Part shown: piece by piece, positions 12,256 to 14,268 of the stretch
Layout: every line of letters starts with the position of its first letter
Position numbering within the stretch: the stretch's first letter is position 1
NCBI GenBank assembly: GCA_039802865.1
Contig: JBDRXL010000005.1
Coordinates: 6,099-70,098 of the forward strand
Direction: 5' to 3'
DNA length: 64,000 nt
DNA from: a candidate division WOR-3 bacterium
GTDB lineage: Bacteria; Hydrothermota; Hydrothermia; LBFQ01; DSFT01
Program-made: the position numbers and the translations under genes
Notes under the pieces: model-generated
Seen by the model: the letters and a program-made list of their open reading frames with translations, nothing else
Told to the model about the DNA's origin: nothing
Database searches by the model: none

Positions 12256-12534
12256 TTTTTCTTACCGTATTATCTTTATTTTAAATTGCCAAATTAAGTT
12301 AAAAATATATAATAAAAATTTTAATAAATTGTCTATTTAGAAAAAGTAAATTATTAAAATTTAAAATTGATAAATTCAAAAAATAATTTAAAAATAAGTT
12401 TTTTATCAAATAAGAATTAATCATTTTAACCTTAAATTTAACAATAAAACTATTAAAATATAAATTGCCAATTTAATTTAAAAATTTTTTGATTTGAAAT
12501 TTTAATAGGGGGGTATTTTAAAATGAGGGGGGAC

Positions 12535-12564
12535 TTGAAAAGGGGTAATTTGATGCTTTAAAAT
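12535..12564 (+). promoter_or_regulatory. Sigma70-type promoter of hup
   Basis: TTGAAA (12535-12540), 18-nt spacer, TAAAAT (12559-12564); SD aaggaggtg before ATG 12613. Confidence 0.6.
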
Positions 12565-12574
12565 TTTCACACTT

Positions 12575-12589
12575 GCAGTGGAAGGGGTC
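12575..12589. repeat. Left arm of a perfect 15-bp inverted repeat flanking hup
   Basis: gcagtggaaggggtc is the exact reverse complement of 12899-12913. Confidence 0.9.
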
Positions 12590-12612
12590 AAAAAACAAAA
12601 AGGAGGTGAAGT

Positions 12613-12885
12613 ATGAACAAAGCCCAACTTATAAATGAAGTAGCAAAGAGAGCTGATTTAACAAAGAAGGAAGCAAAAGCCGCTGTTGATGCGGTATTTT
12701 CCGCAATAAAGGATGCCCTTGCAAAAGGGCAAAAAGTAAGACTCATTGGTTTTGGAACATTTGAAGTAAGAAAGAGATCAGCAAGAAAAGGTAAGAATCC
12801 AAAAACTGGTCAAACCATTAACATACCTGCAAGAAAAGTTCCTGCATTTAAAGCATCCGCTGAATTAAAGAAACTTGTAAAGTAA
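12613..12885 (+). CDS. hup: DNA-binding protein HU
   Basis: [34 protein letters not shown]. Confidence 0.97.
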
Positions 12886-12898
12886 AAACAAAAAACCC

Positions 12899-12913
12899 GA
12901 CCCCTTCCACTGC
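12899..12913. repeat. Right arm of the 15-bp inverted repeat flanking hup
   Basis: gaccccttccactgc. Confidence 0.9.
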
Positions 12914-12915
12914 TC

Positions 12916-14268
12916 TTAAAACAAAATCAAGGAAGCAAGTGTAAAATAAGCGGTATAAGTAATAATATCTCCAATTGTTGTAATAAGAGGAATTCCAACA
13001 CCTGCCGGATCTATGTTCATCTTCCTTAAAATTATTGGAGTTATAAATCCAAATGTATTAGCAACAATACAAGATATAATTGAAGATAAACTAACTACAA
13101 AAGCAAGATTAATATAAAAATTCCCTCTAAATAATGCTATTATAAACATTCCAAGAGCTACAAAAATAGATATTAATAAAATTGTTGAAAATTCCCTCCA
13201 AAAGAACTTCAAAAATGCTCTTAAATTTCTTTCAATTTCACCTGTTGCAATAGCCCTTATAGTAAAAGCAGAAGCCTGTGAGCCTATAATTCCTGTTGTA
13301 TTTGCTAAATTCGGTAAGAAAAATGTTAGAACTGTTAAATGAGCAATTATTTTATCAAAACTATTTAATACCCAACCTGAAAAATTTCCCAAAACTATCA
13401 TAATAAATATTGCAGGAATTCTTTTTAAAACCTTATCTTTATAAGATAGTTCAAAATACTTTGCCTCTGGATCAACCAAACCTACAAATCTATAAATATC
13501 TTCTGTTGCTTCTTCTTCCATAACATCCATAACATCATCAATTGTAATAATTCCAAGTATTCTATTTTCTTTATCAACAACAGGCAAAATTAATAAGTCA
13601 TAATTTTTCATAATTTGAGCAGCAATTTCTCTTTTATCATATGCCGAAACATATAATATATTTTCACTAATATCAGAAAGTTTTAAATTTTTATCACTCC
13701 TTACAATTTTTGTTAATTTTGCATAACCCTTTAACTTATTATCCTTTGAAATTATAAAAATTCCCAATAGGGCTTCATCAGAAATATCACTACTTCTTAT
13801 AATTTCAAGTGCCTGTTCAATAGTAACATTTTCTTCAATTGCTAAAAATTCTGTATTCATTATTCTTCCACAAGAATCTTCTGGATAATTTAATAATTTA
13901 AGAGCAATATCTCTTTCTTCCTTTGGTAAAATTGAAATAATTTTTTGAACCAAAGCAGGTGGAAGTTCCTCAAAAAGAGCAATTTTATCATCATCATCAA
14001 TCTCCTCAAATATCTCTAATAATTGTTTATCAGAAAATGTTTTTATAATTTCTTCAAGTTTATATCCCTCCAAATAAGTAATAACATCTGAGCATTTCTC
14101 ACTATCAAGCAATCTTAAAATAATAACTGCTTTACTTGGCTCTAAATCTTCTATAATTTCTGCTATATCAAAAGGGTGAAGATTTTGAACAAGGACTTTT
14201 AATGATTTAAAGTCCTTTTCTTCTATAGCTTCAATAATTTCAGGAAGTAATAATTGGGATATTCTCAA
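12916..14268 (-). CDS. mgtE: Magnesium transporter MgtE
   Basis: YPEDSCGRIMNTE, CBS pair, GIITIDD, GSQAS, DPA...PLITTIGD. Confidence 0.93.
   Translation of the reverse strand: MRISQLLLPEIIEAIEEKDFKSLKVLVQNLHPFDIAEIIEDLEPSKAVIILRLLDSEKCSDVITYLEGYKLEEIIKTFSDKQLLEIFEEIDDDDKIALFEELPPALVQKIISILPKEERDIALKLLNYPEDSCGRIMNTEFLAIEENVTIEQALEIIRSSDISDEALLGIFIISKDNKLKGYAKLTKIVRSDKNLKLSDISENILYVSAYDKREIAAQIMKNYDLLILPVVDKENRILGIITIDDVMDVMEEEATEDIYRFVGLVDPEAKYFELSYKDKVLKRIPAIFIMIVLGNFSGWVLNSFDKIIAHLTVLTFFLPNLANTTGIIGSQASAFTIRAIATGEIERNLRAFLKFFWREFSTILLISIFVALGMFIIALFRGNFYINLAFVVSLSSIISCIVANTFGFITPIILRKMNIDPAGVGIPLITTIGDIITYTAYFTLASLILF

Follow-up and report, generated by a model that had tools for sequence, protein, structure and literature searches.

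The hup gene of a candidate division WOR-3 bacterium, which encodes HU, is enclosed by a perfect GC-rich inverted repeat, and the behaviour of its two arms among relatives makes it very probable that they form a selected RNA structure, a long-range helix that would join the two ends of the hup mRNA. The window, which is the whole 64,000-nt stretch of DNA that was analysed, contains the following features at this locus.

12535..12564, + strand: predicted sigma-70-type hup promoter (TTGAAA, 18 nt, TAAAAT; 10 of 12 matches), the best promoter-like site
12575..12589, + strand: 5' arm of the putative long-range helix, GCAGUGGAAGGGGUC (= GCAGTGGAAGGGGTC), with G-rich arms at the matching site in relatives
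12590..12612, + strand: A-rich leader, predicted to be unstructured, in the loop and left unpaired by the helix, with the strong Shine-Dalgarno sequence (SD) GGAGG at 12602-12606
12613..12885, + strand: hup CDS, HU, 90 aa (Pfam Bac_DNA_binding PF00216, 123.6 bits)
12886..12898, + strand: spacer of 13 nt from the stop codon to the 3' arm, aaacaaaaaaccc, variable in sequence among relatives
12899..12913, + strand: 3' arm of the putative long-range helix, GACCCCUUCCACUGC (= GACCCCTTCCACTGC), with a predicted duplex energy of -31.0 kcal/mol with the 5' arm
12916..14268, - strand: mgtE CDS, convergent, from the ORF list; context, outside the element

A sequence-only reading of the window had described a perfect 15-bp GC-rich repeat around hup, with its left arm about 10 nt past the -10 box and its right arm 13 nt past the stop codon. 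The repeat was found at 12575-12589 and 12899-12913, and both distances held, the first when counted from the promoter TTGAAA-18-TAAAAT at 12535-12564 and the second when taken from the coordinates. The arms are complementary at 15 of 15 nt, lie 309 nt apart and both sit between the predicted hup promoter and the next gene. The -10 region can alternatively be read as an extended -10 element, TGcTTTAAA. The transcription start site (TSS) is predicted at about 12569-12572, and the first nucleotide of the 5' arm lies approximately 3-6 nt past this point. The promoter block tttgatgctttaaaattttca, a 21-mer, was the same in every hup promoter of the genus, including those of nine metagenome strains. 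A TSS downstream of the left arm appears implausible because just 23 nt, comprising an A-run and the SD, separate this arm from the ATG, and because the conserved promoter lies just upstream. Termination ahead of the right arm also seems implausible because the 13-nt A-rich spacer contains no hairpin. Both arms are probably transcribed into one RNA.

On the 3' side, the mgtE stop codon (12916-12918) begins 2 nt past the 3' arm. The sequence-only reading had found no local terminator hairpin for either hup or mgtE, and this was upheld by a scan of the hup-mgtE spacer, which revealed no terminator-like site on either strand. In the window and in its genus, the sequence 3' of the arm (tcttaaaaca) has no U-tract and no recognisable terminator. 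The near-identical A-rich linkers that had been proposed to join the arms to the CDS are both present (aaaaaacaaaaa at 12590-12601 and aaaaacaaaaaa at 12884-12895, the latter overlapping the hup stop codon), but the post-stop linker is unconserved even within the genus and was rejected as a component of the element. Only the A-rich leader ahead of the SD is general, and it precedes GGAGG in nearly all relatives.

Several other sequence features were observed around the gene. Upstream of the hup -35 box, at 12499-12533 of the window, a direct repeat with 16-nt spacing is made up of two G6 runs (ATTTTAATAGGGGGG and ATTTTAAAATGAGGGGGG) in a spacer of otherwise ~16% GC; this repeat is unconserved in genus relatives. 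Within the hup CDS, the minus strand carries a terminator-like hairpin at 12714-12731 (TGCCCTTTTGCAAGGGCA followed by a T-rich tail), which could stop read-through from mgtE about 185 nt beyond the mgtE stop codon. An outer inverted repeat of 12 nt (12565-12576 and 12935-12946, 92% complementary) flanks the main arms. Joining it to the stem over a bulge of 21 nt was considered and rejected: the right half belongs to the mgtE coding sequence, the left half coincides with the -10/+1 region and the related locus L004 does not keep the repeat, which is probably fortuitous.

The arms have a GC content of 67% in a genome of 27.7% GC. With up to two mismatches allowed, the 15-mer occurs at just these two sites in the 1.64-Mb assembly, which rules out a dispersed repeat or the end of a mobile element. 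A genome-wide search for perfect inverted repeats with at least six G/C and a spacing of 100-3000 nt returned the hup repeat as the longest GC-containing one, and the runners-up were 12 nt long and all inside ORFs. We also scored each gene for the best contiguous helix that its upstream 120 nt can form with its downstream 80 nt; this score replaced RNAduplex on whole 140/110-nt flanks, which gave sprawling, uninformative duplexes. The hup gene ranked first of 1,653 ORF-based genes, with a score of 40 against a mean of 19.2 (sd 3.3). A second HU/IHF-like gene in the genome has no flanking helix. Together, the repeat search and the ranking of the 1,653 genes rule out a flanking helix as a trait that the mRNAs of this genome generally share.

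Most of the other high scores in this ranking are accounted for by a near-palindromic motif of the -10 region, (T)GCTTTAAAATTTT(C/A)A, which is present at 12550-12570 of the window and in many promoters of genome G000, both up- and downstream of genes. The second-best flanking helix lies outside the window, at G000:C10:9702-11151, around a gene located directly downstream of RNase Y. It has 17 bp including G·U pairs, formed by GAGCAAGTAAGGGAGGT upstream and ATCTTCCTTGCTTGTTC downstream, and its 5' arm overlaps the Shine-Dalgarno sequence; it could be an icaR-like pairing of the 3' UTR with the SD.

In a first sample of the class Hydrothermia, a hup orthologue was present in 40 genomes from 15 genera. 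All genomes in the comparison are MAGs, and the closest hup loci are from hot-spring and hydrothermal MAGs of candidate division WOR-3, 'Candidatus Hydrothermia'. The near-complete genome G020 was considered as a cultured host and discarded, being a Kamchatka MAG and no isolate. A contiguous flanking helix of 9-18 bp (dG -15.6 to -36 kcal/mol) was detected at 33 of the 40 loci, in nine genera. A tenth genus, g17 from the phylum sample, has an 18-bp helix with a 3' arm that starts 3 nt after the stop codon, bringing the distribution to 10 of the 17 class genera sampled, in six families. In helix-bearing relatives the 3' arm begins 3-27 nt after the stop codon (10-27 nt in the first class sample), the 5' arm starts 6-28 nt past the -10 box and it ends 23-68 nt ahead of the start codon. 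The 5' arms of the helix-bearing genera are as follows.

g1 (the genus of the window): GCAGTGGAAGGGGTC
g2: GGATGGAGGGGGA
g3: GGGAGGAGCAGGGGC
g4: AAGGGGGGCAGGG
g5 and g15: CCGGGGGACGG
g7: AGAGGAGCC (plus GGGGG/CCCCC over a 2-nt bulge)
g10: GGTGTCCAGA
g13 and g17: TTGCCCCGGGG

Within the class, six genera (g6, g9, g11, g12, g14 and g16) have no helix or an unconvincing one, and that of g8 is doubtful. The helix is dispensable, since six to seven genera of the same class have no convincing helix. Outside the class, none of 37 hup loci from other WOR-3 classes had the helix, and nothing comparable was seen in a set of ~75 hup loci from Bacillota and Gammaproteobacteria (z about 0), with two AU-rich candidates, L049 and L058, among them. 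These two sets of loci rule out the helix as a universal trait of hup. Judged by its distribution across the sampled loci, the helix is a lineage-specific invention that appears to have been kept over six families. One of the WOR-3 genomes of another class carries two tandem hup copies, 160 nt apart (G108:C126:5015-5714, L125).

The sequence past the 3' arm differs among the relatives. Genera g7 and g10, which are GC-richer, have a separate canonical terminator, and their 3' arm is placed between it and the stop codon. A U-tract comes immediately or a few nt after the 3' arm in g15 (...CCCCCGGtttttaaaa), at locus L032 of g3 (...CCCGGCTTgtgcttttttt) and at loci L015 and L017 of g4. At two loci of g2, L011 and L012, the 3' arm TCCCCCTCCATCC could also pair locally, with a GGAGGG located 3-5 nt upstream of it (GGAGGG-loop-CCCTCC), and at L011 the whole 3'-arm region lies inside a CTGAAGA/TCTTCAG hairpin followed by TCTTTTT. 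At these two loci the long-range helix might compete with a local terminator-like fold.

Covariation between the arms was assessed in several ways. Cognate flanks reached a helix score of at least 35 at 21 of the 40 loci, compared to 3 of 1,444 non-cognate pairings, a control limited to pairings between genera because same-genus pairs share arms. RNAalifold, run on MAFFT alignments of whole transcripts, predicted the closing helix unprompted in families f1 and f2. For the 13-bp helix of f2 (12 sequences), 98.1% of the cells were paired and 6 of the 13 pairs showed compensatory changes, although many such counts reflect few deep between-genus events and not many independent ones. None of 500 column shuffles matched the observed pairing or covariation score for f2, and sliding the partner by 1-3 columns reduced pairing to 55-69%. 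Double changes also occurred within the genus of the window, where GCAGTGG/CCACTGC became GCGGTGG/CCACCGC (A-U to G-C) and ...GGGTC/GACCC... became ...GGGTT/AACCC... (C-G to U-A). In nine more strains of this genus, represented by metagenome contigs, the arms are exactly kept and the 12-15-nt spacer beside the 3' arm varies. The core idea of the sequence-only reading, a closed stem with the SD and CDS in its loop, is thus strongly supported by covariation and by uniqueness in the genome: the arms covary in relatives by the non-cognate pairings, by RNAalifold and by the f2 statistics, and the 15-mer is confined to the two hup sites, as that reading had required.

The arms also have a constant polarity with respect to hup. 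Each of the 24 distinct 5' arms contains more G than C (190 G vs 52 C), the promoter always abuts the G-rich arm and the inverted configuration was seen in none of the helix-bearing loci. In g3, four of six distinct helices are continuous only through G·U pairs; in DNA, or if read from the opposite strand, these positions would be A·C mismatches. Over all helices there are 13 internal G·U and 9 A·C cases, a comparison that is clearly informative only in g3, and the A·C cases proved to be spurious extensions. The G-rich 5' arms and the G·U-dependent helices therefore point to an RNA helix on the sense strand.

When the predicted transcript was folded, the MFE structure contained the 15-bp stem, and so did the centroid structure (z = -3.5). 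Its 15 pairs have a predicted pairing probability of at least 0.93 over 37-90 C, a range in which nearly all other pairs melt. The tRNAs of this genome are 60-68% GC against 27.7% GC overall, which would fit a thermophile. In the full transcript, the SD region has a predicted probability of being unpaired of 0.54-0.71. The 3' arm is predicted to form a duplex of just -8.1 kcal/mol with the SD region, compared to -31.0 kcal/mol with the 5' arm. The predicted openness of the SD and the weakness of this duplex led us to reject an anti-SD device of the icaR type.

The nearest known counterpart is a pairing in the hbs mRNA of B. subtilis, which also encodes HU. In that mRNA, 14 nt of the 5' UTR pair with their full complement, which lies shortly before the terminator (Braun, Durand and Condon 2017, PMC5737220). 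Mutations in a single arm resulted in shorter-lived primary transcripts and faster RNase Y cleavage in the leader, and a compensatory double mutation restored the wild type, which proved the pairing (PMC5737220). The WOR-3 locus likewise encloses an HU-encoding gene, identified here by PF00216, and has fully complementary segments of 14-15 nt in the 5' UTR and, soon after the stop codon, in the 3' UTR of what is here probably a single RNA. The SD is predicted to be free, the host encodes RNase Y and in the GC-richer relatives g7 and g10 the 3' segment lies just upstream of a terminator. Pairing is indicated in both systems by compensatory changes, with natural covariation as the surrogate here.

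The two systems also differ in several respects. The hbs duplex is mostly A/U (-19 kcal/mol), whereas the WOR-3 hup duplex is rich in GC (-31 kcal/mol) within a genome of 27.7% GC. The hbs 5' arm is internal, as the long leader first forms two 5' hairpins, and it overlaps a mapped RNase Y cleavage site. In contrast, the WOR-3 hup 5' arm is terminal, within a few nt of the predicted TSS, and is conserved with covariation over six families. Evidence for common descent with the Bacillus element was not found at the ~75 Bacillota and Gammaproteobacteria loci or at the 37 loci from other WOR-3 classes, all of which were without the helix. The hbs and WOR-3 hup helices are probably independent inventions and not homologues, because no comparable helix was seen at those ~75 Bacillota and Gammaproteobacteria hup loci.

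Other known RNA structures share single properties with the hup helix. In the S. aureus icaR mRNA, a 3' UCCCC motif pairs with the SD, blocks translation and creates a substrate for RNase III (Ruiz de los Mozos 2013, as summarised in PMC7821165). This mRNA resembles WOR-3 hup in having an intramolecular duplex of the 5' and 3' UTRs of a bacterial mRNA with a C-rich 3' segment, and differs in that it represses through SD pairing, whereas the hup SD lies outside the duplex and the helix partner is 12 nt upstream of it. As in rRNA precursor stems, flanking sequences would pair over a long range and enclose an RNA; RNase III or Mini-III cuts the rRNA precursor stems, which are longer, whereas the hup helices of 9-18 bp surround a translated mRNA. 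Stabiliser hairpins of the E. coli ompA type similarly base-pair the first nucleotides of an abundant mRNA. These are local hairpins, whereas the partner strand in hup is ~300 nt away, past the stop codon. A search of Rfam gave no meaningful match at E<=10, and a literature search returned no published description of a hup end-to-end helix.

On balance, we lean towards the view that the helix is an end-clamp on the hup mRNA. According to this view, the first ~20 nt of the mRNA would pair with the segment 13 nt past the stop codon, and the helix would close the leader, the SD and the 273-nt CDS into a loop of ~309 nt. The ribosome-binding site would be left single-stranded, so that translation would not be blocked. 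The clamp would hide the 5' end and the neighbouring leader from RNase Y, which is encoded in the genome (624 bits), and from other 5'-end-sensing decay. RNase J and RNase E/G were not detected in this 92%-complete MAG, so their absence is uncertain. Near the 3' end, the stable duplex may shield the mRNA against 3' exonucleases; past the 3' arm the window's genus has no recognisable terminator, in contrast to g7 and g10. The helix would in this way prolong the life of the hup mRNA, a very abundant message, and we give even chances to mRNA stabilisation being its main function. At locus L008 of genus g14, which is without the long-range helix, a local hairpin occupies the equivalent 5'-terminal position, and this fits a role in 5' protection. 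Of the functions listed in the sequence-only reading, RNase protection fits best, by analogy to B. subtilis hbs, while an RNase III site and long-range termination take minor places and circularisation is unsupported.

The same helix could instead be a processing stem of the RNase III type, cut on both strands like the stems of rRNA precursors or of phage T7 early mRNAs, either to release a trimmed hup mRNA or to start its decay as in S. aureus icaR. A perfect duplex around a whole functional RNA has the geometry of the rRNA processing stems, and the genome encodes a divergent 200-aa RNase III-domain protein (C14:31412-32011), which matches PF00636 with 42.4 bits against a cut-off of 27. This protein, the sole RNase III representative detected, is nevertheless far under the NCBIfam cut-off (36.9 vs 166 bits). 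RNase III substrates typically have about two helical turns, and helices of 9-18 bp are rather short by comparison. The SD is also outside the duplex, unlike in icaR, and we consider cleavage by RNase III unlikely. We think it more doubtful still that the helix is a long-range terminator or 3'-end former, in which the 3' arm, on emerging, would find the 5' arm free and pair with it into a stem that stops RNA polymerase or sets the 3' end. Such a role would suit the hup gene of the window, which has no local terminator, and the U-tracts at or near the 3' arm in g15, at L032 of g3 and at L015 and L017 of g4. However, there is no U-tract past the arm in the window or its genus, and in g7 and g10 the separate canonical terminator past the 3' arm shows that the helix is not the terminator there. 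Intrinsic terminators combine a short-loop GC-rich hairpin with an immediate U-tract, which the hup locus of the window does not show; the loop of 309 nt is far beyond those known, and T-runs are expected from the AT-rich composition of the spacer alone.

A closed loop could also act on translation. The stem would bring the stop codon (13 nt from it) beside the SD (12 nt from it), favouring re-initiation by ribosomes, or would offer a junction to which HU binds, giving feedback. HU binds structured and junction nucleic acids, RNA included, and is among the most abundant proteins. The geometry is conserved, with the 3' arm 3-27 nt from the stop codon and the 5' arm 23-68 nt from the start codon, but short 3' UTRs alone would put the arm near the stop codon. 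To our knowledge, a closed-loop translational or autoregulatory device has no bacterial precedent, and we assign this possibility a low probability, similar to that of the long-range terminator. If it were true, the hup mRNA would be a prokaryotic counterpart, built from RNA alone, of mRNA circularisation in eukaryotes, and a thermophilic lineage would have kept its closed loop, with stop codon and SD within ~25 nt across the stem, over hundreds of millions of years. Finally, inverted repeats that flank a gene are a hallmark of DNA-level elements, such as mobile cassettes with terminal repeats, invertible segments or palindromes bound by proteins. For hup we regard this origin as extremely improbable. 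Neither copies of the arms elsewhere nor both orientations were found: the 15-mer is unique in the genome and no helix-bearing locus is in the inverted state. The arm sequences differ between genera yet remain complementary, the G-rich arm is on the promoter side in all 24 distinct arms and the g3 helices depend on G·U pairs.

Known intramolecular pairings that join a bacterial mRNA's 5' UTR to its 3' UTR amount to a handful of single-species cases (RNAIII/hld, icaR and hbs). For a whole-mRNA helix kept by selection across six families with compensatory change, as the hup helix very probably is, we found no published counterpart. Together with hbs, it suggests that clamping the ends of the HU mRNA is a recurrent solution. 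The hup loci of this class also form a natural series of variants, with helix lengths of 9-18 bp and a terminator in some but not in others, in which the relationship between end-to-end pairing and mRNA life could be tested in organisms that have RNase Y and live at high temperature.
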